IMG/VR virus record: IMGVR_UViG_3300044451_000174
Location: 10,722 to 74,721 of that record
Strand: one strand, 5' to 3'
Source: a virus
Lineage: Duplodnaviria > Heunggongvirae > Uroviricota > Caudoviricetes
Length of the DNA stretch: 64,000 nt
Made by a program: the position numbers and the translations under genes. Below the pieces are notes generated by a model, which saw nothing but the letters and a program-made list of their open reading frames with translations, was not told the DNA's origin and did not search any database. This document shows positions 71-47,633 of this stretch, piece by piece. Positions within the stretch are counted from its first letter, which is position 1. Each line of letters opens with the position of its first letter.

Positions 71-358
71 ATGATCACCGAAGAACAAGTGGAGCGGCTC
101 AATCTGGCGACCCTCGAAGGCGACCTCCCGTTGTGGGACGTGGTGATCGAGGGGAAGGAATGGACCGCTCTCTCGTTCGAGGGTGCGTGGTATCTGGCCC
201 CGGTCAACTTCAAGTTCGGCAACGAAACACATCCCGGCCAGCCGTACCTCGAAATGGACCCTGAGAAAATCACGGTCGTCGGCGAAGATTACTTGAAGTC
301 CCTCCCCAAGTGGGACTTCGATCACGTCAGCGGAAAGATCACACATGAACAATCTTGA
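71..358 (+). CDS. hypothetical protein (95 aa)
   Basis: Complete ORF. The next gene start overlaps its end. Confidence 0.45.
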   Translation: MITEEQVERLNLATLEGDLPLWDVVIEGKEWTALSFEGAWYLAPVNFKFGNETHPGQPYLEMDPEKITVVGEDYLKSLPKWDFDHVSGKITHEQS

Positions 359-1475
359 TAGGAAACGGGGCTGTCTGTACGGCCTCGCAATCGGTGACGC
401 TCTGGGGGCTGCGGTCGAGTTCCGTTCCCCCGGAACGTTTGCGTTGGTGACCACCTACCGTTCGGGCGGGCCGCACAGCCTCGCCAAAGGCCAGTGGACC
501 GACGACACGTCGATGGCTCTGGCGTTGGCGCACAGCATCGGCGAGAAGGGTTGGGATTTGAAGGACCAGATGAGCCGTTACTTGGACTGGTTCCAGAACG
601 GCCGCTACAGCGTGAACGGGTTCTGTTTCGACATCGGGTGTACGACCCGTGACGCCTTGATGAACTTCGAGCGCGACGGAGATCCCTGGAAGTCGGGCGA
701 CCCGGCACCCGGATCTTCGGGCAACGGCAGCATCATGCGATTGGCACCCGTTGCGATTCACACCGCCGATCTACTAGCCGAAGGCCACGTCAGCCCTCTC
801 ACCGAGAAAGCCTCAGACTCCAGTCAGGTGACGCACGCGAGCGACCAGTGTCGGTCGGCGTGTCGTTATATGAACTTGGTGCTGGCTGGCCTTATTAACG
901 GCGAGTCTAGGGAAACGGTGTTGGACCCGGAGTGGGAGCCGGTTCAGATTGCCAGGAAGTCCGAGCAATTCGACCCGTTGATCGAGAACGTGATTCAGGG
1001 GAGTTACCGGAACAAGACGCCGAACATGGTTCGTGGGTCGGGTTGGGTGGTGGCGTCTCTGGAAGCGGCTCTGTGGGCGTTCCACGACGCGGACAGTTTC
1101 GATGAGGCGGTACTTCGCGCCGTCAATCTGGGTGAGGACGCGGATACGACGGGTGCGGTGTGTGGGCAGTTTGCGGGGGCGTATTGGGGGTTGGGCGGGA
1201 TTCCGGCGAAGTTCGTGGACGGTTTGGACCGGAAGGACATGATCGAGTCGGCGTTGAAGGCGTTGGGTTGTCCGGCCCCGGCGCGGGAGTTGAAGGACTA
1301 CATTGATTTTGGTCCGAAGGAAGACGACGGGACGCGGGTGTGTCTGCACGAGAACGGCGGCAGCTATTATGGCGACACGAACCCGGCGACGTACAAGTGT
1401 ACACGAACCCGGCGACGTACAAGTGTAAGGATTGTGGGGGCTTCTTTTTGCAAGACGAGGCGGCGTGGCGGCTAG
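345..1475 (+). pseudogene. ADP-ribosylglycohydrolase (ARH/DraG family), frame broken near the C-terminus by a 26-bp tandem duplication
   Basis: N-terminal CLYGLAIGDALGAAVEF and DDTSMALALA motifs are typical of the ADP-ribosylglycohydrolase family. The frame shifts at 1375-1426. Removing one 26-bp copy joins this ORF in frame to ORF 1340..1729. Confidence 0.7.
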
Positions 1476-1729
1476 ATACCGTCATGAACTTCAAAGAATG
1501 GCTGACGATAGTCGAGGACACGAAGCGTTCGGGTGCCAAACTGGGTTTGTACCCGGACATTGTGAATTTGATGGGTCAGCACCCGCCGCTTTACGGAATG
1601 CCCCATGCGGCCGATTACATTACTTACTTGTACATCAAGTACGGTAAAGACGGCCCGCCGTCAGAGAACGGCATCATCAAAGTGAAACCCGGTCGGAACG
1701 TTACCGACCGCTACTTACCACCGGAGTGA
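1340..1729 (+). CDS. C-terminal continuation of the ARH fusion protein (translated alone only if the frameshift is real)
   Basis: Contains the same NPATYKC peptide as the end of 345..1475. A KDCGG Cys motif follows. Confidence 0.5.
   Translation: MSARERRQLLWRHEPGDVQVYTNPATYKCKDCGGFFLQDEAAWRLDTVMNFKEWLTIVEDTKRSGAKLGLYPDIVNLMGQHPPLYGMPHAADYITYLYIKYGKDGPPSENGIIKVKPGRNVTDRYLPPE
1375..1426 (+). repeat. perfect 26-bp tandem duplication acacgaacccggcgacgtacaagtgt, two copies
   Basis: Read directly in the sequence. Copy 1 is 1375-1400 and copy 2 is 1401-1426. Confidence 0.9.
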
Positions 1730-1730
1730 C

Positions 1731-2063
1731 ATGCACGACTTGGTTGCAGAGTGTCTGGCAAAAGGCATCCCCGTCATCAACTCGACCAGAACCGAGGAAG
1801 ATTACCGTGCCGAGCGGTTCAAGCAAGAAGAAGAAAACCTTGCGAACCACGTCTTCATCAGCGGCGTCAAGGATGAGGGCTGCCGGATCGATCCCGAAAC
1901 CAATCAGGTGATTCGCCGGATCTCGTTCGACTACAATTTCTTCCAGTCGTGTTTGCACTTAGGGGAGATGCACGATTTCGCTGGTGCGTTCGACGCCGAA
2001 CACAAGCAGCGGCTGGCGGATCAACTGTTCGCGGCACTGGAAAGGGCAGAGATCAGGCTATGA
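1731..2063 (+). CDS. hypothetical protein (110 aa)
   Basis: ORF. The next gene start overlaps its stop as ATGA. Confidence 0.5.
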   Translation: MHDLVAECLAKGIPVINSTRTEEDYRAERFKQEEENLANHVFISGVKDEGCRIDPETNQVIRRISFDYNFFQSCLHLGEMHDFAGAFDAEHKQRLADQLFAALERAEIRL

Positions 2064-2311
2064 AAACGATCTATACAGAAGACGAGATCCGGTCGATGAT
2101 TTCTAAGGTGACGGGTGTGTTCCCGAACATGATCAAGTTCGTGGTTCGCCGGGACGACGGTGCCAGACTGAACCGTTCGGATTTCGAGATCGAAGCGGAA
2201 TGTGAGATGCCCGCGCCGCCTCCGAGGACGGGCGACAAGTTGGAAGACGCACTGAACAAGTGTCGGCAGTGGGAAATGTCCGACGCGGAACTCGCAGAAC
2301 TGGAGAAATGA
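2061..2311 (+). CDS. hypothetical protein (83 aa)
   Basis: ATG at 2061 overlaps the upstream stop. Begins MKTIYTEDEIRS. Confidence 0.5.
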
Positions 2312-35131: not shown

Positions 35132-38100
35132 ATGGCTGATCCGCAACTTCACGTCGTAGTCGATGCAATCGGCCGCAACGTAAACATGAACATCGACCCA
35201 AACCAGTGGGACGAACTGAAAAGTTCGATCACCGCCGGTATGAAGTCAGTTGTCGGGGAAGTCGCGTCGGTCATCAGCCAGAAAACGTCGTCCCAGTGCA
35301 AGTCAATCGAAGCAGCTTTGAACGAAATGAGTTCGAGTTTCGCTGAAGAAATATCGGGCCTGAAGCGGGTGATGAACGAACTCGGCCAGAAGATCGACAA
35401 CATCGGCAAGGGAACGGGAACCCCAACTCTCGGCGGCGACGTAAGCGGTTCCTTGGGCGTGATTCAAACGAACACTCAGGCCGTTTCCGACTACGTCACA
35501 GGAGAGTTCAAAACCGCGTTCGCTGGTCAGGCGTCCGACATTCGCGCAATGAAAGACATGGCGTCAACGCCGGGCAAGTTCTTCACACACGACCAAGAAA
35601 CACACAGACTACTAGGCGACTTGAAAGCCGCCATCGAAGCGTGCTGTCCGGGTTCTTCGATTGTTGACAAGACCCCATCCGTAGCTCCTTCGCCGACAGA
35701 AAGGGCGGCTCCGAGTGCGGCACCATCGGGTGGCGGTGGTGGCGGGGGTGGTGGCGGGGGCGGTGGCGGGCCGAGTCCGATGGACCGTGCCAGAGCATTT
35801 GAAGCGGCCATGAATGCCGCGACCACGTCAAACGAGGGCATGAACGACTCGCTCACGCGGGGTCGAAGGGCTTATCGTCAGCACCGCGAAGACATGATGG
35901 CGACGGATGACGCACTTGAAGGTTTCATCGGCCACGTCGCCGATCTTCAAGAGGCGTTTTTCGTCTTCTCGAAGGACATGAGTTTCTTGAAGGATACGTT
36001 CCTCGGCACCTTCAAGTCCATGTTCAAGGAAGCCGTACACGAAGAAGTCAAGTTCATCAAAGAGACGCGGGCCGCGATCAACGAGACGCAAGGTCTGACA
36101 GCCGAGACACGAGGTCTTCAAGACGCGATGACGGACATCGGCAAGACCGCCAAGACAACCGGCGTCGGCCGCTCCGAGTTCCAGGCGTCTTACCTGAAGG
36201 CTCTGAAGTCGGGCATCAAGGACCAGAAGATCGCGATGGCGGTTACGACGGCCCAGTTGAACACCGAGAAGCAGTTGGGTCTTGAGGCCGGCGAACTGAC
36301 CGAAGAGTTCATCAAGTGGAACAACCAGTACAACATGTCCACCATGCAGATCGCCGAAATGGGGCGGGGCATGCGGGACATCGCACGCTACACAGGCTTG
36401 ACGGGCAAGGAACTCGCCAACGCCGTCAAACAGGGTGACAACTTCGTTGAGGTTCTCCGCAACGCCGCCATGTTGAGTGCGAGCGCAGCCAAGAACGTCA
36501 TGGAGATCGCCGCCAACGCCCAAAAGATGGGTGTGACTAAGCAGATCGAACCGCTGATCAAGGCGATGGCATCGACCAACAACTTGTTCCGCGAAGCGTC
36601 GAGCGAGACTCGCGCCTTCCTGTTCCAAGCCGCCGCCCAGGTCGGTCGCACGGGCGACTTGATGAAGGGTACGATCCTCAAGACGAAGGGCGGCATCAAG
36701 GACATGGAGAAGGGCATGGAGATGATGCTGAAGAAATTCGGCGTCCAATCCGTTGAGGCCATCGACAACCTGTCCGACGAAGCCAAGATGAAGCTCAACC
36801 TCCAGTTGAAGGCCGCATACGGTCTTGAACTCGGCGAGTTGCAGCAGTCGCTGAAGGCGTTGAAAGAGTCCAGCAAAACCCTGGCCGACCGCCTCGATGA
36901 CATCCGCAAGAAACAACAAGGCAACCTCACGCTGGAAGAAAAACTGGCGTTGAAGGAAGAGGAGCGTCGTCTCAAAACGAGCAAGAGCTTCGAGATGTTG
37001 ACGAGTTTGGACGAGGCGGCTAAGGGCGCTAAGGACATGAACGCCGCGTTGTCCAAGTTCGGAGAAAGAAGGAAGGACTTCGAGGGCGACCTGAAGGCGA
37101 TGGGTAAGTCGTGGGGCAGCAACGCCGGTGCAGCCCGTGACGCCATCAACGAAGCTTTGAAGGGTGTCAACGAGTCGCTGAAGGCGTCCGGCAAGTCGGA
37201 ACTGAGTATCGACTCTTCTGAGATCGAGAAGGCGTTGAAAGACCCTGCGGCGTTCCGCGAACTGTCGGCCAAGTTGACTAAGGCCGAACAAGAAGCCGCG
37301 ACCGCACAGAAGGCCGCTCTGGACCCGATGAGCAAGATCGAGCAGGGCGTCCGCGAACTGAACGACACGATGAGGAACTTCACCAGCAGTTTCCTTTCAA
37401 GTTACATGAACTTGACGGGAGTGTTGGGCGTATTGGCTCCGCTCTTGGGCATGATGGCGGCACAACAGGCGTTGTCCATCGCACGGTGGCGGGCCGACAA
37501 GGACTTCGGTGTGATGGGTGTGCTTAAAAAAGGCTTGGGCAAGATCTTCGGTTACGGCGGCAAGAAGAAGGGCGGGGCGGGGGACGTTGCACCCGGTGCG
37601 GCGGCTGGTTCAGGAGTTGATGCGGGCAAGGGCGTCGAGGCTTTGGCAAAAGACGGTTTGGGCGGCGTGTCTCACGTCGAAGACGACACGGTAGCAGGGT
37701 TGCTGCGTCAGTTGCTTCACTGCCTGTGCAGTCCGAAGGCCAACGGGATCGAGAACGACGAGTTCAAAAACATCGGCAAGAAGAATAAGGCCAATGCCGC
37801 CCAGATCGAACAAGGAGCGGTCGCCAAAGCGGAGAAGAAGGCGGGCGGGGCAGCGGCCAAAGAAAAAAGCAAGGCGTCGGCTGGTGGCGACGACACCAAA
37901 TCGATCCTAGACAAGATCGAGAAACTGAAGGGGGACGGACCAAGAATCGCTAAAGCGGCCGGCATCATCGCGGCACTGACAATCGGAATCGTGCTGTTGG
38001 GCGCGGTGTTGATCAAGTTGGCTAACATGTTGTTCAGCAAATTGAAGCTGGACATCAAGACGGTCATCGAGACGGCCGCGATCATCGGCGTGATCATGGG

Positions 38101-41100
38101 AGCGGCTGGACTGATCGGCACCGCCTTGTACTACGCCAAGCCACACCTCGACAAACTCGCGGATGCCGAAAAGGACATCAACGCGATGGTCAAGAACATG
38201 TGGAAGGGCGCTAAGGCGTTGGCGAAGTTGTCGGGTCCGCTGCTCGTGTTTGCGGCGGAACTCGCGATCTTCGGCAAGATCGTTCTGGGTGCGTTGGGGC
38301 TGAGTCCGGGCAGGTTGCTCCTGATCGCCGGAACGTGGATCGCGTTGGCTCTCGGTATCGCCGGAATCGCGGAAGCGATTGTCCGGTCTGGGCCGATGTA
38401 CGCACAACTCCCGGTCGCCACGAAGATGATGCACACGCTCCACAAAGAACTGTGGGCCGCTGTAGGTGCGTTCGGACTCGTGACTCTGCCGCTGATCGCG
38501 TTCGCCGCAATCATGGCGTTGTTCGGTTACGTCGTGATCGACAAGTTCGGGTTGACTCCGGGCCGCATGTTCGCCATTGCAGCGACGTGGTTGATCCTCG
38601 CCGTCGCGGTCGGAGCCATCGGGTACGCTCTCACGGCTTCGTTGCCGGGATGGGCGACAATGGGTGCCGGTCTGAGTGCCGTGTGGTCGATCTATCCGAT
38701 GCTGTGGAGTGCGGTGGCGGCGTTCGCGCTAGTCAGCTTGCCGCTCATCGCGTTCGCGGGCCTTCTCGCACTGTTCGGATACGTTGTCATCGACAAGTTC
38801 GGCCTGAGTCCGGGCCGCATGTTCGCCATTGCAGCGACGTGGTTGATCCTCGCCGTCGCGGTCGGAGCCATCGGGTACGCTCTTGCCGCCTCGTTGCCCG
38901 GATGGGTAACGATGGGTGCCGGTCTGTCGGTGATCTGGGCGTTGATGCCGGTGTTGCTAAACGCAGTGGCCGCATTCGCCTTAGTGAGTCTGCCGATCAT
39001 CGCGTTCGCGGCACTTCTTGCAGGGTTCGGGTACATCGTAATTGATCAACTCGGATTGACTCCGGGCCGTATGTTCCAGATTGCAGCGACATGGTTGATC
39101 CTCGCCGTCGCGGTCGGGGCCATCGGTTACGCTCTAACGGCATCGTTGCCCGGATGGGTAACGATGGGTGTCGGTCTGGGTGTGATCTGGTCGCTGCTCC
39201 CCCTGTTGTTCATGGCGGTTGCGGCCTTCGCGCTAGTGAGTTTGCCAATCGTGGCGTTCGCTGCGATTCTGGCCGCGTTCGGGACAATCGTAATTGACGA
39301 GCTTGGGTTGACGCCGAGTCGGATGTTCGACATCGCGGCGACGTGGCTGGTACTGGCAATCGGTATTGGGGCAATCTCCTACGCACTGATTGAGGCGACT
39401 CCGGGCTGGAGCATGTTGGGTATCGCCTACCCGTTCCTGCTTTACGCATACGGCTTGATGTGGTTGGGCGTGGGAGCATTCGCACTGGTAAGCTTGCCGA
39501 TTCTCGCTCTGGCCGAGATCATCGCCGAGTTCGGCGACACGCTTGACGAACTGGGTCTGACCCCGGAACGGATGAAGCAGATCGGCGAGACGTTCGTGAC
39601 GCTGTCTGAGACGATTGGCGAATTGTGCATGTCGATGTTGGGAGCCACCGCGAAATTGGCGGTCCTCGGCGTTCTGAGCATCTTCTCCGTTCTGATGATG
39701 AGCCTCGCGATGTTGGGCGTCGGTGCCTTCGCGGTGCTGGCGATCCCGATTTTGGCTCTTGGCAGTGCGATCTCCAACTTCGGCCGGACGATCATTGACG
39801 ACATGGGCCTGACCCCAGAACGAATGCAAGCCATTCAAGATTCGTTCACCTCGTTGACCGACACGATTAGGAGCCTGTCTTGGAAAATGATTTCGGCAAC
39901 GGCGTCACTATCGTTATTGGGCGTGCTTTTGATATTCTCAACTTTGGCTTCCACGTTTATATGGATGGGCGCGTTGGCATTCCTCGTGATGATGGGGCCG
40001 TTCCAGTTCTTGGCATACATGCTTTCCAAGTTCGCCGAATCAGTTGACATTGAAGGGGTGAAAAAAGCTGGTGAAATTTGCGAGGCGATTGCCAAGACGA
40101 TTAGTACGATTCCGCCAGTCATCAAGTCACTAACCGACGAATTATTACCGTTGATGGAACCGCGTTGGTGGGGTCTTGTTGGGCCAAGCAAGATGGAAAA
40201 AGCTCTTAAGGTAACAACAGGTTTCTTCAGTAAGAACTTTGCAGCAATCTTGAGTTTTATTTCTTACGGCATTATTGATCCAATCTTTGGCATTGGTCCC
40301 GGTGCCGCAGGTGTTAAACTCAATCCTCGCGACATTCAGACGGCCGCGAACGTGATGAAGGGGCTGGCTGATATGCTACCCGCTATTCCACCTGTGATTG
40401 ACGCACTGAATGGCCCAATTGCCGATCTGTCTAAAAAAAGTTGGTTTGGATACGGCAGTAACAAATTAGAAAAAACTCTGAATAAACTAAAAGACGGTTT
40501 CCATTCAAGTTTTGCGGCAATTTTGAATTTCATTTCTTACGGTATTATTGATCCGATATTTGGTATCGGTGCCGGTGCTTTTGGCACTAAACTAAATCCA
40601 CGAGATGTTCAAACCGCCGGTAAGATTATGAGTGGGTTGGCAGAAATGCTACCTGCTATTCCACCTGTGATTGACGCACTGAATGGCCCAATTGCCGATC
40701 TGTCTAAAAAAAGTTGGTTTGGATACGGCAGTAACAAATTAGAAAAAACTCTGAATAAACTAAAAGACGGTTTCCATTCAAGTTTTGCGGCAATTTTGAA
40801 TTTCATTTCTTACGGTATTATTGATCCGATATTTGGTATCGGTGCCGGTGCTTTTGGCACTAAACTAAATCCACGAGATGTTCAAACCGCCGGTAAGATT
40901 ATGAAGGGGCTGGCAGAAATGCTACCTGCTATTCCACCTGTGATTGACGCACTGAATGGCCCAATTGCCGATCTGAGCAGCAAAGGCTGGTTCAGCGGCA
41001 AGAATAAGTTGCAGAAAACGTTAGCCAAGTTGCAACAAGGTTTCCAGCAGAACTTCACGGCGATTTTAAGTTTCATATCACATGGTATTATTGGCCCTAT

Positions 41101-43204
41101 ATTCGGTGCCGGCCAAGCCGAGGGCGAGGGCATTATGTTAAACCCACGCTACATTCAAATGGCTGCAAATGTGATGAAAGGTCTGGCCGATATGCTTCCG
41201 GCCATCGGAACCATGATTGACACTCTCGGCAGTGGAATTCAGAAAATCCTGAAAAGCAGCAAAATGCGGATGAAGATGGACGCAATCGAAACGTTCGCGA
41301 CATGGTTCGCGAACGTAGCCCGCTTGCTGACCGAAGGTATGGTGATTCCGATCAAGACGCAGTTCCCGACCGTGGACGAAGTTCAGGACATGGGCGGAAG
41401 ACTTGAAGGAATGACGCAGATCGTTGCCAAATTGCCGAAGTTCATGGAGGATCTGTACTCCAAGATTAAAGAAGGTTTGGCACTGTTAGATCAAAACAAG
41501 ATCGAGGGCAACGAGGTAACACGATTTACGATATGGTTCTATAACGTTGCCTCGATGTTGAACTTCGGTATTGTGATGCCGATCACGACCGGATTCCCGC
41601 CACAGAAAGAAGCGGACGACGCTATCGCCAAGCTCGACAAGATGACAGAGATCGTATCAAAGTTGCCGTCAATCGTTCAGAGCTTGAGCGAGGCGACGGC
41701 CGGCGCTCGCGAGATGATGAAGAGTTCGGGCATTTGGGGCGCGTACCGCGACATGGACATGTTCATGTGGGAAGCGGGCTTCATCATCCGTCGCGGCGTG
41801 ATGGAGCCGATGCAGACATGGCCGAAAGACAGCGAGATGACCGACGCCGTTGCCCGCATCACCAAGATGGACGAAATGTTCAAGACGATGGCTCAGGCTA
41901 TGGAAAGCATGGCCGCGTCAGCTAAAGCTATGGCTTCTGTTGATCTAAGTCAGTCTATGAACATGGGGAGTTTGGGCAACCCTGAAAATGGCAACTTAGC
42001 CGAGTTCGTGAGTGCGTTCGCGGAACAGAACGCCGAGTCGATGGGCATGAACGATACTAATTCTTTGGTTGATGTGATGGGTCAACAATCTCCACAAATC
42101 ACATCGATGCAAAGTGCTTTGCGAATTGTCGAGAACTACACCCACGACATCAAGGATCTGTTCGAGCGGTCGTCCAGTGTCATCGGTGACATCCAGAAGA
42201 CCAGCGAGTACATGTCGATGTTCGGTGATTTGGACTTCTACGAGAACCAGATCTCCGAGAAGATCGCGCAGAGCAAGCAGTTCGTGCCGACCGTCCAGAG
42301 GATTGCAGAGAACATCGGTAAAGGCTTCGACTTTGCCGGCGGCAAGGCGTTGCTCGAAACCATCGCCGGACAGAAAGTCCGCATGGATGAAATGGCGGCG
42401 GGTCTGAAGGAAACAGAAGACTACACCAAGAAATTGGCGGAAATCTTCACGATGGCGAACAACGCCGTCAACATGATCAAGCAGACCACCAACAACCTGA
42501 CGCAACTCAATGCCATCAAAGACGTTGAGAAAGAAATTACGGCCAAGATCGCGTCGGGCAACAGCTTCATGGTGTCGGTGTTGAAGACGGTCGAGGCGGT
42601 CGCCACCAACTTCGGAACCAACGAAGAGGTCAAGACGACTCTGATGGGTGTGCAGGCCAAGATCAAGGCGGCGGGCGACACGAATCAGGCGTTGACCGAC
42701 TCTTTAAAGTTCATCGAGACGGTTAAACAGTTGCAGAGCAACGTGTTGTCAATCGGCCAAATGGCCAAAGACAAGCCGCTTGGCGGTGGCGTGCCGGGTG
42801 CCGGCGCTCCTGTCAGCATCCCGGCCGCTAAGACCGGATTGAGTACGCCTGAGCCGGTACAGACCGCTTCGACAACGGGCGCGGCCAACTTGGACGTTGA
42901 GAAGACGATCATGAGAGATCAGGCGACTTCTCAGCCGCCGGCCGGTGGCAACAAGAACGCGGTCGATTTCAGCAACTTGCAGAAGGCGATTGAAGAGAAC
43001 AAGATGACCAACGACGAGATCCTCAGCGTGCTTCAGGCCATGTTGCGGCTGATGACGCCGCGTTCTGGAAGCAACACGGCACCGGGCGGGGACACGAATA
43101 CATATTCGCGTCCCGACAAGCCGGCTGCTTACTACCGCGCACCCGTTGGCGACTTCAACAGTTCCGCAGGTAAGGGTGCCACCAACATGGTAAGGACCAG
43201 ATAA
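35132..43204 (+). CDS. tail tape measure protein (TMP), 2690 aa, with internal tandem repeats and multiple transmembrane hairpins
   Basis: Giant ORF directly upstream of the baseplate genes. It has alpha-helical low-complexity regions, a Gly14 run, 252-bp repeats that encode paired transmembrane helices, and 273-bp repeats. Confidence 0.7.
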   Translation: MADPQLHVVVDAIGRNVNMNIDPNQWDELKSSITAGMKSVVGEVASVISQKTSSQCKSIEAALNEMSSSFAEEISGLKRVMNELGQKIDNIGKGTGTPTLGGDVSGSLGVIQTNTQAVSDYVTGEFKTAFAGQASDIRAMKDMASTPGKFFTHDQETHRLLGDLKAAIEACCPGSSIVDKTPSVAPSPTERAAPSAAPSGGGGGGGGGGGGGGPSPMDRARAFEAAMNAATTSNEGMNDSLTRGRRAYRQHREDMMATDDALEGFIGHVADLQEAFFVFSKDMSFLKDTFLGTFKSMFKEAVHEEVKFIKETRAAINETQGLTAETRGLQDAMTDIGKTAKTTGVGRSEFQASYLKALKSGIKDQKIAMAVTTAQLNTEKQLGLEAGELTEEFIKWNNQYNMSTMQIAEMGRGMRDIARYTGLTGKELANAVKQGDNFVEVLRNAAMLSASAAKNVMEIAANAQKMGVTKQIEPLIKAMASTNNLFREASSETRAFLFQAAAQVGRTGDLMKGTILKTKGGIKDMEKGMEMMLKKFGVQSVEAIDNLSDEAKMKLNLQLKAAYGLELGELQQSLKALKESSKTLADRLDDIRKKQQGNLTLEEKLALKEEERRLKTSKSFEMLTSLDEAAKGAKDMNAALSKFGERRKDFEGDLKAMGKSWGSNAGAARDAINEALKGVNESLKASGKSELSIDSSEIEKALKDPAAFRELSAKLTKAEQEAATAQKAALDPMSKIEQGVRELNDTMRNFTSSFLSSYMNLTGVLGVLAPLLGMMAAQQALSIARWRADKDFGVMGVLKKGLGKIFGYGGKKKGGAGDVAPGAAAGSGVDAGKGVEALAKDGLGGVSHVEDDTVAGLLRQLLHCLCSPKANGIENDEFKNIGKKNKANAAQIEQGAVAKAEKKAGGAAAKEKSKASAGGDDTKSILDKIEKLKGDGPRIAKAAGIIAALTIGIVLLGAVLIKLANMLFSKLKLDIKTVIETAAIIGVIMGAAGLIGTALYYAKPHLDKLADAEKDINAMVKNMWKGAKALAKLSGPLLVFAAELAIFGKIVLGALGLSPGRLLLIAGTWIALALGIAGIAEAIVRSGPMYAQLPVATKMMHTLHKELWAAVGAFGLVTLPLIAFAAIMALFGYVVIDKFGLTPGRMFAIAATWLILAVAVGAIGYALTASLPGWATMGAGLSAVWSIYPMLWSAVAAFALVSLPLIAFAGLLALFGYVVIDKFGLSPGRMFAIAATWLILAVAVGAIGYALAASLPGWVTMGAGLSVIWALMPVLLNAVAAFALVSLPIIAFAALLAGFGYIVIDQLGLTPGRMFQIAATWLILAVAVGAIGYALTASLPGWVTMGVGLGVIWSLLPLLFMAVAAFALVSLPIVAFAAILAAFGTIVIDELGLTPSRMFDIAATWLVLAIGIGAISYALIEATPGWSMLGIAYPFLLYAYGLMWLGVGAFALVSLPILALAEIIAEFGDTLDELGLTPERMKQIGETFVTLSETIGELCMSMLGATAKLAVLGVLSIFSVLMMSLAMLGVGAFAVLAIPILALGSAISNFGRTIIDDMGLTPERMQAIQDSFTSLTDTIRSLSWKMISATASLSLLGVLLIFSTLASTFIWMGALAFLVMMGPFQFLAYMLSKFAESVDIEGVKKAGEICEAIAKTISTIPPVIKSLTDELLPLMEPRWWGLVGPSKMEKALKVTTGFFSKNFAAILSFISYGIIDPIFGIGPGAAGVKLNPRDIQTAANVMKGLADMLPAIPPVIDALNGPIADLSKKSWFGYGSNKLEKTLNKLKDGFHSSFAAILNFISYGIIDPIFGIGAGAFGTKLNPRDVQTAGKIMSGLAEMLPAIPPVIDALNGPIADLSKKSWFGYGSNKLEKTLNKLKDGFHSSFAAILNFISYGIIDPIFGIGAGAFGTKLNPRDVQTAGKIMKGLAEMLPAIPPVIDALNGPIADLSSKGWFSGKNKLQKTLAKLQQGFQQNFTAILSFISHGIIGPIFGAGQAEGEGIMLNPRYIQMAANVMKGLADMLPAIGTMIDTLGSGIQKILKSSKMRMKMDAIETFATWFANVARLLTEGMVIPIKTQFPTVDEVQDMGGRLEGMTQIVAKLPKFMEDLYSKIKEGLALLDQNKIEGNEVTRFTIWFYNVASMLNFGIVMPITTGFPPQKEADDAIAKLDKMTEIVSKLPSIVQSLSEATAGAREMMKSSGIWGAYRDMDMFMWEAGFIIRRGVMEPMQTWPKDSEMTDAVARITKMDEMFKTMAQAMESMAASAKAMASVDLSQSMNMGSLGNPENGNLAEFVSAFAEQNAESMGMNDTNSLVDVMGQQSPQITSMQSALRIVENYTHDIKDLFERSSSVIGDIQKTSEYMSMFGDLDFYENQISEKIAQSKQFVPTVQRIAENIGKGFDFAGGKALLETIAGQKVRMDEMAAGLKETEDYTKKLAEIFTMANNAVNMIKQTTNNLTQLNAIKDVEKEITAKIASGNSFMVSVLKTVEAVATNFGTNEEVKTTLMGVQAKIKAAGDTNQALTDSLKFIETVKQLQSNVLSIGQMAKDKPLGGGVPGAGAPVSIPAAKTGLSTPEPVQTASTTGAANLDVEKTIMRDQATSQPPAGGNKNAVDFSNLQKAIEENKMTNDEILSVLQAMLRLMTPRSGSNTAPGGDTNTYSRPDKPAAYYRAPVGDFNSSAGKGATNMVRTR
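38450..39960 (+). repeat. about six tandem 252-bp (84-aa) repeats inside the TMP gene encoding paired transmembrane helices
   Basis: Near-identical stretches such as ccgggccgcatgttcgccattgcagcgacgtggttgatcctcgccgtcgcggtcggagccatcgggtacgct recur at 252-bp spacing. The peptide repeat is FALVSLPLIAFA...GLTPGRMF..IAATWLILAVAVGAIGYAL. Confidence 0.7.
40230..41050 (+). repeat. three tandem 273-bp (91-aa) near-identical repeats inside the TMP gene, AT-richer than their surroundings
   Basis: Antisense ORFs at 40336, 40609 and 40882 are spaced exactly 273 bp apart. The peptide repeat ILNFISYGIIDPIFGIGAGAFGTKLNPRDVQTAGKIM..LPAIPPVIDALNGPIADLSKKSWFGYGSNKLEKTLNKLKDGFHSSFAA occurs three times. Confidence 0.75.
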
Positions 43205-43749: not shown

Positions 43750-44076
43750 GTGACAGTGGCCAACTTCTTTGAAGAAACGAACATAAACCCCAGAACTTAC
43801 TTCACTGCCGCGAGTCGGTATTCCGACTCGACCATCTGCTATTACACGGACATGAAACGCCTGTCACTTACGACGTACAAGCGTGGCGTTTCTGCCGTGA
43901 CCCCCAACGACAAATTCATGGTAATCGGGAAGGGCCAAGAGTACCGTCCCGATCTGGTCAGTAGTCGCGTCTACGGTCTGCCCGATTTCTGGTGGCGGAT
44001 CATGGAGGCTAACGGGATCTACGACATTTACGACTTCAAGGCCGGCGTCAACATCCGAATCCCCTCAATGATCTAA
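43750..44076 (+). CDS. LysM-like tail protein (P2 gpX / T4 gp53-like)
   Basis: PDLVSSRVYGLPDFWWRIMEANGIYDIYDFKAGVNIRIP fits a LysM pattern. Confidence 0.55.
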   Translation: MTVANFFEETNINPRTYFTAASRYSDSTICYYTDMKRLSLTTYKRGVSAVTPNDKFMVIGKGQEYRPDLVSSRVYGLPDFWWRIMEANGIYDIYDFKAGVNIRIPSMI

Positions 44077-44085
44077 GGAAAACGT

Positions 44086-45519
44086 ATGTCTTGTAACGCA
44101 ATTTGTTTGCCAGAATATCAATGTGGTGATCTACAAAAAATAAAGCCCAACACTGGCGCGGTTTACGCACCATTTGTGACAATGACATTGGGTGGAACTA
44201 TCACCGTTGGTAACAAATCATTCCCAGGAGAACCCAACACAGCCTGCATCAAATCTTTTGAATTTGGCGGCTCGACTGGTGCTGGCTGTACTGTAGAAAT
44301 AATTGATGAATCTGGTGGTAGTTTTGTGAGATATTTCAATGCAGTTAACAAAAATTTATGTCAAGCCGCCGATGATCACAATATGGAAATTAACTTTGGA
44401 TGGATCTCCAGATCGACAGATGGAAATTTAACCAAAATCGGAATTCCTGAAGGGCCGATATTTTTCATACCCGGAAAAATAGAAAGCGTGTACGAAGGAG
44501 GTGTTATAAAATACACGTTGAATGGAACCGATATGTTAACCCACATGGCAGAAAGTCGCGTGCAAGTACCTGTTGGAACAGAATCAAATAAAGTTAGATT
44601 GATGCCGGCGGTAAGAAAAATGGCGTCAAGAAATTGTCCACCACTCAATAACATCAGATATTTAAGACGAAATGGACCAAATCTAACTGAATGGAGATTC
44701 AAAAATAGTGATGGCGGGCCAGAGGGTCCAATGGGAGTTTGGCAGGGAGATCAACAAAATCCTATTTCGGCCATGAGAAAATTTTTCAATTCCTTGACGA
44801 CAGACCGTAATAAAGGATTTTATGCTATTTGGAACTCTGGGTCATCAGTTCCAGAACTTTGGTTCATGGAAGATTCGCGACCATATTGTGACGAAACGTC
44901 TAATGGATTTTTTTGTGCTGGAACTTACATTGTAAACGGAGGAGATTGCAGCCCTGTAATTAGCTTTAACCCAAAAGCAGAATGGCAATATACTGCTGAT
45001 CTTAATTCGGGTGGTAACTTGGGAGGTGCCACATCTGCTAAGAATATAGAACAACGACCGCCAATAGAACAAAGACGAAGCGGGAATTGTAAGGACATAA
45101 CCACTACTCAACGTGGTGCTGGTACTACAACACAATTCGCCGCACCACAAAACGACATCAATTGGCGGTCGCCAGATCAAATTACTCCAAAAATGCAAAA
45201 AGCTATGGCGGAACACGAAACGGCGGCACACTACAAAGAGCTGCAAGCGCCTATGGAAGCCGAGTTAAAAATACATGGCGACACAAGCTTTGTCCATCAA
45301 TCGCGATGGGCCGATGCTGTTGTTTCGATAATCGTAATAAATCCATTTCAAATTTTTTCAGGTGGTTCATACCACGAATGGCTCGCCGGGCCAATGTGTA
45401 ACCCAATTTTTTCAGACAAAGAATGGATGATAAAAGGTGTTAACCATCAAATTTCTGATGGAGCTTATACTACGACCTTAAAAGTACAATGTATGAATGT
45501 AAACAAGACTGAACAATAA
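44086..45519 (+). CDS. putative baseplate hub protein (gpD/gp27-like position), encoded in an AT-rich segment
   Basis: 477-aa ORF between the LysM protein and the gpV-like spike. GC content is visibly lower than in its neighbours. Confidence 0.4.
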   Translation: MSCNAICLPEYQCGDLQKIKPNTGAVYAPFVTMTLGGTITVGNKSFPGEPNTACIKSFEFGGSTGAGCTVEIIDESGGSFVRYFNAVNKNLCQAADDHNMEINFGWISRSTDGNLTKIGIPEGPIFFIPGKIESVYEGGVIKYTLNGTDMLTHMAESRVQVPVGTESNKVRLMPAVRKMASRNCPPLNNIRYLRRNGPNLTEWRFKNSDGGPEGPMGVWQGDQQNPISAMRKFFNSLTTDRNKGFYAIWNSGSSVPELWFMEDSRPYCDETSNGFFCAGTYIVNGGDCSPVISFNPKAEWQYTADLNSGGNLGGATSAKNIEQRPPIEQRRSGNCKDITTTQRGAGTTTQFAAPQNDINWRSPDQITPKMQKAMAEHETAAHYKELQAPMEAELKIHGDTSFVHQSRWADAVVSIIVINPFQIFSGGSYHEWLAGPMCNPIFSDKEWMIKGVNHQISDGAYTTTLKVQCMNVNKTEQ

Positions 45520-47633
45520 TGACAAATTTATCAGACCAAATACGACAACTAGAAACAGAACTAAAAAAAGTTAAAGCTGTTCTTTCTTCAAGTCAATACG
45601 AAATGGCTAAAGTCGCAACTACGACTTTGAACGACCGTACCCACATTGTTTCTCAATCAGAACAAATGTTTGGCATGTACACTGCCCTGTGTGTTGAAAC
45701 CAAAGATGTTTGGAAACAGAACCGCATCCGTTTTTATTGCCCCTTGTTCCAGTCTCCCGACAGCCCGATGAAAAGTCTGCCGTGGGCGTGGCCGATCTCG
45801 CCTATGGGCGGGTTTGATGATTCCGGCTGTTCGTGGGTGCCACCAGCCGGCTCGACCGTCTGTTTGATTTTCGAGGGCGGCGCGAGAAACGCACCTTTCT
45901 ACATTGGCACAACGTGGCATCGTAACCGAGGACCAGAAGGGGCCAATGTATGGACCATTGACATCGCGGAGTACCAGAAGGTGTGGTCGGGTCACCGCAA
46001 GGGCTACCTGTGTGGACCCAACGACGAGAGCCAGTGTTTGCCGCCGTGGAACACCGAATCTTCAAACGGGTTCGACCTTAATAGCATCGTTGACTTCGAT
46101 GCGAACCCGGAAGCCCAAAAGATGTTGACCTACCCGCACATTTACGGGTTCAAGACGCCAGAAAAACACATGCTCAAAATGGTTGACGGCGATGCGTCGT
46201 GTGACCGCCGGTGGAAAAGACTTGAGATACTCTCGTCTTGCGGCAACTGGCTGATCTTCAAAGACGATCACCTGCACTACGCCGGCCAATACGCACACCC
46301 GACCACGGGCGGCGTTGTCAAAACGGGTGACGTGACGTGCATCGAAGGTGCCGCACCCGGCATCGACATTACCAGGGCAATCGGCCTCGGCGATTTCTTG
46401 CCGGACTTAAACCCCGTTGACTCCGGGGCCGATTTCGGCAGTGCGGACGAAGGGTCAGTGGAAGACGACACGCCGAAAGAGGGAGCTAAAATTTCAAACC
46501 CCGCTTGCAGTGCAAAAATTGTTGGCGGTCATCCCGACACACCTTACTTCCCGTCGTGGAAACCGACCAAATATCAAAAACAACAGATAGGCGCGAACCC
46601 TTTTTTCAAACACGAAAACGAGTGCCGACCGTATCGCGGGCCGGGCAACAACCGTAACAACACCGCCATGTTGCCCCAGAGCGGCATCCAGATGATGTCT
46701 ATCAGCGGCCACACATGGGTCATGGACGACTCGGTCGAAGAACCGACTGGCGATTGCGTGTGGGAACGATCACTACGACCGTTCGACTATGGGTGCAACA
46801 ACATTTTCAACGGTTACATGGGACTGTTCAGCAGTTCGGGTCACAAATTCATCATGAGTGACATCGAGCAAGACGAGCCGAACAAAAGGGGCGAAGACAA
46901 TTACATCCGTCTAGAGTCGCAGGCAGGCAACATCATCGAACTCAACGATATGGAGAAGGAGATCGGGATCGCCGGTTTCCGTCGCGGCATCAGCATGCGT
47001 TCGACCAGCAAACACTTGTTCATGATGATCGATGAGGACAACGAGCAAGACTTGATCCCGCGAAGCGATGGTAACCAACCGGTCAACAAGGCGAAGAAAG
47101 CGTTCATCAAGATCCGGTCGGGTTACGGTATCGAGTTCAAGATCGAGGACACCAACTCGCAGGAGAATACGGTTGCCCAGTCCCTGCAAATGTTCTGTCC
47201 GCAGAAGGACAATACCGAGCGTGGCCCGCACATCATGAGGTTCCAAGAGGCTCCGAGTGGTCCGGGTCAAATCATGCTTCGTGCCGGCGGCGACTACATT
47301 ACAATAAGTTACGACGATCACGTCGAGATGGTGGGCGACAAGGAAAAGAATCCAAGTAACAAGATCGGCATCATTTCCAAGAACAAGGTCGTGTCAACGG
47401 AACAGGTTTACATCAACCTCGCCCGCATGCACGTCTTCTTGGCTAAGGAACAGATCCTGTTGTTGGCCGGTCAGGATTGTCCGTCCGAGAACGGCGAGAT
47501 GGCTCCGTGTCCGGCACAGATCCTCGTGTACCACGAGGGCAAGATCAAGATCAGTGACCGCGTCATCGGAAGCTGTTCCCCGAAGGCTCCGTGTGCGTCG
47601 ATCTTCATGATGTCGCCGTTCGTTTCGTGCTAA
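45519..47633 (+). CDS. baseplate central spike protein (P2 gpV / T4 gp5 / VgrG-like), 704 aa
   Basis: WAWPISPMGGFDDSGCSWVPPAGSTVCLIFEGGARNAPFYIGTTW matches the gpV OB-fold signature WA.v..p.aG...G....P..G..V.v.F..GD...P...G. Confidence 0.7.
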   Translation: MTNLSDQIRQLETELKKVKAVLSSSQYEMAKVATTTLNDRTHIVSQSEQMFGMYTALCVETKDVWKQNRIRFYCPLFQSPDSPMKSLPWAWPISPMGGFDDSGCSWVPPAGSTVCLIFEGGARNAPFYIGTTWHRNRGPEGANVWTIDIAEYQKVWSGHRKGYLCGPNDESQCLPPWNTESSNGFDLNSIVDFDANPEAQKMLTYPHIYGFKTPEKHMLKMVDGDASCDRRWKRLEILSSCGNWLIFKDDHLHYAGQYAHPTTGGVVKTGDVTCIEGAAPGIDITRAIGLGDFLPDLNPVDSGADFGSADEGSVEDDTPKEGAKISNPACSAKIVGGHPDTPYFPSWKPTKYQKQQIGANPFFKHENECRPYRGPGNNRNNTAMLPQSGIQMMSISGHTWVMDDSVEEPTGDCVWERSLRPFDYGCNNIFNGYMGLFSSSGHKFIMSDIEQDEPNKRGEDNYIRLESQAGNIIELNDMEKEIGIAGFRRGISMRSTSKHLFMMIDEDNEQDLIPRSDGNQPVNKAKKAFIKIRSGYGIEFKIEDTNSQENTVAQSLQMFCPQKDNTERGPHIMRFQEAPSGPGQIMLRAGGDYITISYDDHVEMVGDKEKNPSNKIGIISKNKVVSTEQVYINLARMHVFLAKEQILLLAGQDCPSENGEMAPCPAQILVYHEGKIKISDRVIGSCSPKAPCASIFMMSPFVSC

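Follow-up and report, generated by a model that had tools for sequence, protein, structure and literature searches.

Simple-sequence-repeat contingency loci are multi-copy tracts of 1-8 bp units whose copy number varies among siblings. The cryptic phnE allele of E. coli K-12 carries an extra 8-bp tandem unit that frameshifts the gene, and revertants lose that unit (PMC13492104). For the enzyme discussed below, the described systems are the ADP-ribosylarginine hydrolases of the DraG/Tri1 type (PF03747; PDB 2cwc, 6dre, 2woc) and, among phage proteins, AdfN of T4, a NADAR enzyme that acts against DarTG1. Here we examine a phage gene for a predicted ADP-ribosylglycohydrolase (ARH) in which a 26-bp tandem duplication shifts the reading frame near the 3' end. 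We consider it probable that this is a lineage-specific, fixed, spontaneous tandem-duplication frameshift that truncates the zinc-knuckle-like tail of a large tailed phage's ARH, and an event of this type is already well known.

The window, by which we mean the whole 64-kb stretch of DNA that was analysed, belongs to a large tailed phage whose lineage is represented by contigs reaching 126 kb, and possibly 254 kb. Among the products encoded in the window are a baseplate wedge protein (PHROG 219), a P2 gpI-like protein, a gpV-type spike and a tRNA nucleotidyltransferase, and blastn against 50,697 GenBank phages gives no match. The nucleotidyltransferase gene at 25355-26905 (-) encodes a tRNA nucleotidyltransferase / poly(A) polymerase head-domain protein (PF01743, PHROG 2244), and ARAGORN finds no tRNA genes in the 64 kb. 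Just upstream of the baseplate genes, in a tape-measure-like position, there is encoded a 2690-aa ORF (35132-43204, +) with no family match. Within it lie two long tandem arrays, both in frame and unrelated to each other, one at 38480-39346 with 3.4 copies of 252 bp, giving 84-aa units that are very hydrophobic and membrane-like at 78% identity, and one at 40238-40975 with 2.7 copies of 273 bp, whose 91-aa units are 91% identical; the same ORF has a Gly-rich 12-bp repeat in 3 copies at 35735. The GC content falls to 0.47 at 40001-42000 and to 0.44 at 44001-46000, versus a window mean of 0.56. The first of these dips coincides with the 273-bp array and the second with an unannotated 477-aa ORF (44086-45519), and they may mark modules that were acquired recently or differ in composition.

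In its present form the ARH gene occupies 345..1475 (+) and encodes 376 aa, of which the final 24 (TRTRRRTSVRIVGASFCKTRRRGG) are read out of frame. The catalytic domain, PF03747, is encoded at 369..1208 (+) and spans aa 9-288 (E = 5e-73), with a profile score of 246.6 bits versus a gathering cut-off of 26.2 and an alignment covering profile positions 1-286 of 287. It is intact and lies entirely upstream of the duplication, which begins at codon 344, 55 codons past the end of the domain. The protein also matches PHROG 6572 (E = 5e-64), and its best solved relatives are the Thermus ARH 2cwc (E = 2e-60) and the Tri1 ADP-ribosylarginine hydrolase 6dre (E = 3e-57). It reaches neither the cut-off of the Tri1 equivalog NF041672 (255.8 versus 490 bits) nor that of the DraG equivalog TIGR02662 (140.3 versus 337 bits), and PADLOC returns no defence-system match. 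By these profile matches the product is a member of the ADP-ribosylglycohydrolase family and a predicted hydrolase. The closest cellular homologues are planctomycetal at ~63% identity, and the phage gene was plausibly acquired from cellular homologues, of which the planctomycetal ones are nearest. A few genes upstream of ARH, on the opposite strand and ~870 nt upstream of the first base of the window, contig L023 carries at 1425-2135 (-) an AstE/AspA-type gene (succinylglutamate desuccinylase/aspartoacylase family, PF24827).

The residues D53, D54, T55, D265, D267 and T269 are invariant across sets of 12 and 28 aligned relatives, and all are kept in the window protein. From the known DraG/ARH3 structures we take the DDT (D53 D54 T55) and DxDT (D265 D267 T269) signatures to be the metal-site ligands. 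The core has a dN/dS of 0.07-0.11 between lineages, a range indicating that it is under strong purifying selection at that level. One reading offered in a preliminary description of this DNA was a very recent inactivating mutation. The mutation part of that reading, as an event specific to this lineage, is the option that we favour; the inactivating part is not supported, since the ARH domain and its invariant residues are untouched.

The repeat unit, ACACGAACCCGGCGACGTACAAGTGT, is present as two perfect head-to-tail copies at 1375-1426, as the preliminary description had it. Direct comparison finds 1375-1400 identical to 1401-1426, and Tandem Repeats Finder reports 1375-1427 with a period of 26, 2.0 copies, 100% matches and no indels. 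In copy 1 (1375..1400, +) the ARH frame reads (D)TNPATYKC, the last residue being Cys352 of the tail motif; copy 2 (1401..1426, +) is 100% identical and in the +2 frame reads TRTRRRTSV. The frameshift previously deduced from the 26-bp length is confirmed, with the frame moved by +2. This is the sole perfect tandem duplication of period 20-40 in the 64-kb window, and 20 shuffles of the window contain none. In ~309 kb of related phage loci, all other perfect tandems with a period of at least 15 have a period divisible by 3. The identity of the repeat continues for 1 base (A) rightward and 0 bases leftward, which limits the microhomology available when the duplication arose to 1 nt at most. Because the unit starts with ACAC and finishes with GTGT, the junction of the copies, GTGT/ACAC, is a perfect 8-bp palindrome, GTGTACAC, at 1397-1404.

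No stable structure is found at the repeat region, the DNA fold being no better than that of shuffles (z +1.1 and +1.5), and on those scores a hairpin or other secondary structure was rejected as a cause of the duplication or of recoding, which leaves the junction palindrome as the one notable feature. The same scores bear on whether the repeat might be a site of programmed recoding, at which ribosomes would shift by +1 or -2 to make a full-length product that keeps the CxxC intact and carries 9 inserted residues. The feature that such a mechanism could exploit is that two frames stay open across the repeat. With no stable structure, no recognisable slippery sequence, no such arrangement in the relatives, and a product that would be an unprecedented fusion, we regard the chance of recoding as negligible.

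Exactly two copies are present in 8 of the 8 fetched contigs that span the site (L023-L027, L030-L032), and the rest of their sequence agrees with that of the window throughout, at 0 mismatches over 1.5-4.5 kb. They come from JGI 3300045004, 3300045005, 3300045010 and 3300045421 and from Logan SRR35359074 and SRR35364242, with the SRR35359074 contig seen in 5 samples; Logan assemblies are made with a different assembler from those of JGI, and at least 6 samples or runs are represented in all. The exact 376-aa frameshifted protein is recorded on several contigs. A single project or population is probably behind all of these sources, so what we have is one clonal population seen repeatedly, not many independent ones, and by "fixed" we refer to the consensus sequences of one lineage.

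The preliminary description had also entertained an assembly artefact, in which the true genome would be single-copy and the duplication would come from assembly or sequencing. We find no positive support for this, although the lineage does seem to derive from one project. Against it, the same two-copy junction with identical flanks was recovered by two different assembly pipelines from those 6 or more samples or runs. The junction is shorter than the k-mers of both Logan and JGI, so its k-mers must by our reasoning occur in the reads, as a de Bruijn assembler should be unable to make a junction k-mer that is missing from them. Furthermore, the repeat lies in the interior of contigs as long as 126 kb, away from the contig ends. 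The agreement of the two pipelines and the position inside long contigs make an assembly artefact very unlikely, and we allow the single-copy genome only the faintest chance. Separately, we considered whether overlapping ends of a circular contig could have given rise to an artefact and rejected this, the repeat being internal to long contigs and reproduced by the second assembler. A 253,983-bp JGI contig carries P0136, a 52-aa version of the downstream 81-aa protein described below that starts from internal Met30 and corresponds to window ~1484-1573, and this contig is without the ARH gene and the upstream gene. It probably ends 60-150 nt past the repeat, which could be a coincidence, assembly-graph heterogeneity or a rearranged allele.

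What the tail of the protein looked like before the duplication can be read from the relatives. The ARH cluster at 90% identity holds three other proteins, and P0009 (76% identical) came from a homology search. P0003 (L028), P0004 (L029) and P0009 (L035) contain the motif YxGDTNPxxxKCxDCG once each and have a stop 7-12 residues past the CxxC, with C-termini of ...CGDCFLKGEMV in P0003, ...CGESFLHGEMVVA in P0004 and ...CGAIFIKG in P0009, each followed directly by the stop. The single motif and early stop indicate that the ancestral protein was not a fusion but an ARH some 352-376 aa long that ended in a short CHCC tail. That P0004 is itself 376 aa long is coincidental, as P0004 contains, ahead of the motif, an unrelated insertion. 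The gene order of L029 matches that of the window.

In the window, the Cys/His tail motif C333-x-H335 ... C352-x-x-C355 is encoded at 1341..1435 (+), the pattern in the relatives being CxH..YxGDTNPxxxKCxDCG. All four Cys/His ligands (CxH, CxxC) are conserved in P0003, P0004, P0009 and the single-copy reconstruction. The actual two-copy protein is missing the fourth, the final Cys codon (tgt, 1433-1435) having been put out of frame by the duplication. The frameshift loses only this fourth Cys and about 14 terminal residues, in place of which stand 24 residues that are rich in Arg and read out of frame. The tail resembles a small zinc knuckle or zinc ribbon, a putative identification for which the zf-Mss51 Pfam match is sub-threshold at 15 bits versus a cut-off of 27, and for which the AlphaFold model of P0009 gives three short strands with a low-confidence pLDDT of 54-67. 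Loss of the tail would appear to be tolerated by the phage.

Deleting one copy of the repeat opens a 452-aa frame that passes via ...GDTNPATYKCKDCGG... as far as the stop at 1727-1729. The in-frame joining of the two ORFs on removal of one copy, as the preliminary description stated it, is thereby reproduced as an uninterrupted frame. The second partner was given as the mechanical ORF at 1340..1729, of 129 aa with a GTG start; the real gene instead starts at 1484. It encodes an 81-aa protein (1484..1729, +), has an ATG start, is called in public assemblies and is conserved in relatives. In a collection of 5.8 billion protein clusters, 11 of 11 homologues are stand-alone proteins of 52-81 aa, 8 of them exactly 81 aa, and the dN/dS of 0.10 versus L028 indicates that the gene is under purifying selection. 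In the more distant phages L034, L035 and L036, the ARH and 81-aa genes are not neighbours. No fused homologue is found, the best hits covering at most 79% of the 452-aa fusion except for one unrelated multidomain protein, and the exact 452-aa sequence is absent from ~15 billion proteins.

The comparison with L029 accounts for the open frame. Removal of one copy joins the two ORFs only because the ancestral ARH stop, TGA in L029, reads TGG in the window (1466..1468, +). L029 has GCG TGA CGG CTA GAT ACC GTC ATG, and the single-copy frame of the window has GCG TGG CGG CTA GAT ACC GTC ATG; the codon preceding this stretch is GTC in L029 and GCG in the window, and both go on as ATG AAC TTC. That old stop lies five codons upstream of the next gene's ATG and shares its frame. 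Translation of the frameshifted ARH now ends at a TAG at 1473..1475 (+), 8 nt upstream of that ATG. The same TAG is present in the L029 spacer, where it is unused, and its equivalent in L028 is the TAA of an extra 175-aa gene; from this alignment the TAG is taken as ancestral. The extra gene (L028 6113-6640) lies between the ARH and 81-aa genes and is absent from the window and L029, where its last bases (GGCTAG/GGCTAA) are retained and supply the stop of the frameshifted ARH.

The ADP-ribosylglycohydrolase fusion gene of the preliminary description does not survive this comparison. P0003, P0004 and P0009 are single-copy with a stop of their own, and the homologues of the 81-aa protein stand alone, so that on the evidence of the aligned loci the fusion gene is an illusion, the effect of a further substitution where the stop codon used to be. 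A fused single-copy version in related genomes, which had been suggested as a check, was searched for and none was found; the relatives are single-copy, but with separate genes.

For the duplication that we favour as a spontaneous event, we infer both the order of events and the mutational mechanism as follows. A 26-bp tandem duplication would have arisen spontaneously in the 3' tail of the ARH gene, probably by replication or repair misalignment with 1 nt of microhomology and no hairpin, and would have been fixed in one clonal lineage. The frame would have moved by +2 after Cys352, exchanging the end of the protein, including the final Cys of the CHCC motif, for 24 Arg-rich residues, and frameshifted translation would have stopped at the pre-existing TAG 8 nt ahead of the 81-aa gene. 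Neither the catalytic ARH domain nor the 81-aa gene, which is translated separately, would have been affected. The former stop, being now out of frame, would then have gone from TGA to TGG, most simply by neutral drift after the frameshift. Of the residues following the CxxC, those of the window, FFLQDEAAW, are the most divergent from the FLxGEMV of the relatives, which fits relaxed constraint after a frameshift, that is, duplication before the TGA to TGG change. The nearest single-copy relative is at 86% DNA identity with a dS of 0.42, a distance at which there was plenty of time for the two events to occur, and no allele intermediate between them is seen.

The order could also be reversed, with the TGA to TGG change first fusing ARH to the 81-aa protein and the duplication then selected as a suppressor that restored termination, at the TAG just ahead of the 81-aa gene, and with it the separate production of the two proteins. 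The single-copy form of the window sequence is the 452-aa fusion, and such a fusion could be harmful, given that in every relative the 81-aa protein stands alone and is subject to purifying selection. The new stop at 8 nt ahead of the ATG also has the spacing of the upstream gene's stop in L028. However, single-base changes arise far more often than a 26-bp duplication with 1 nt of microhomology, and a one-base reversion or any new nonsense codon would have sufficed and should be far commoner. The duplication moreover costs a conserved Cys, and the TGG single-copy intermediate is found 0 times among ~15 billion proteins. Loss of the stop first is possible but less parsimonious than duplication first, and as a compensatory history we judge it unlikely.

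A further proposal of the preliminary description was that the duplication acts as an on/off switch. As a phase-variable device, the gene would alternate reversibly, by slippage within the phage population, between a truncated ARH made apart from the 81-aa protein and one longer polypeptide that fuses them. Slipped misalignment can add or remove copies in perfect tandem repeats, as in E. coli phnE (PMC13492104), the one-copy product is the open 452-aa frame, and one large contig, the 253,983-bp one, appears to break near the repeat. The predicted products by copy number are the 452-aa fusion for 1 copy, the observed 376 aa for 2, 369 aa for 3 and a 478-aa fusion for 4, and none of copy numbers 1, 3 and 4 restores the ancestral protein of roughly 364 aa. 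No copy-number variation is found among the 8 fetched lineage contigs, every one of which has exactly two copies at the consensus level, and the relatives have 1 copy and are without a repeat tract. The other state of the switch would be a fusion found in no relative, there are just two copies of a unique 26-mer, and the reversion of phnE runs at merely ~1e-7 to 1e-6 when carefully measured (PMC13492104). The catalytic domain would be expressed in both states, which leaves little to switch. The switch is left unsupported by the constant two copies of the lineage, the single copy of the relatives and an ancestral protein that cannot be restored, and we think phase variation here very unlikely.

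The more specific claim sees in the two-copy allele one of two states, separate proteins and a fused one, between which slippage would toggle the gene; we hold this to be highly improbable. If it were true, copy loss would join a DraG/Tri1-like ADP-ribose eraser, via a zinc knuckle, to the 81-aa protein, and phage subpopulations with two proteins or one fused protein would amount to a phase-variable counter-defence gene in a virus.

Pattern searches of larger collections add no further members of the lineage. A degenerate motif pattern has no match in viral, metagenome or genome contigs, and a junction pattern has none in metagenome or viral contigs. The sequences described here were the basis for both patterns, and a check showed that the motif pattern does hit the window as well as the fetched loci, which indicates that the searched collections simply lack the lineage. 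The C-terminal 138 aa of ARH find no relative in viral contigs. A large protein search with the 82-aa tail plus junction peptide produced one word-sharing candidate and no match, probably owing to a limit of the word index.

For annotation, the locus is to be described as a 3'-frameshifted ARH and a separate 81-aa gene, rather than as a broken fusion gene. It also serves as a caution, in that an in-frame join obtained on paper by removing a repeat is no proof of an ancestral fusion; the second change, TGA to TGG, that lies behind the apparent fusion is visible only by comparison with relatives. Beyond annotation the finding matters little. A small phage-specific ARH subfamily with a CHCC tail, possibly with a role in reversing host ADP-ribosylation, may merit mention.

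Among the enzymes, the DraG/Tri1-type ADP-ribosylarginine hydrolases align end to end with the N-terminal 300 residues of the window ARH. Unlike them, the window enzyme is phage-encoded, falls below both equivalog cut-offs and has an extra C-terminal CxH...CxxC tail that is found in a handful of phage relatives only. T4 AdfN is likewise a phage-carried ADP-ribose remover, but it has the NADAR fold whereas the window enzyme is an ARH of PF03747, and the likeness to counter-defence is by analogy only. With contingency loci the ARH gene shares a reading frame set by repeat copy number. Unlike those loci, it has a single duplication of a unique 26-bp sequence, with a copy number that is invariant in all assemblies. 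In phnE the whole protein is hit and loss of the unit restores the functional ancestral protein; here the C-terminal tail alone is affected, no reversion is observed, and loss of a copy would yield a novel 452-aa fusion, the old stop being TGG. What the two do have in common is a short perfect tandem with a length that is not a multiple of 3, which truncates the gene and for which reversion by slippage is possible in principle, and an allele fixed in one lineage where, as for phnE, other strains have one copy fewer (PMC13492104).
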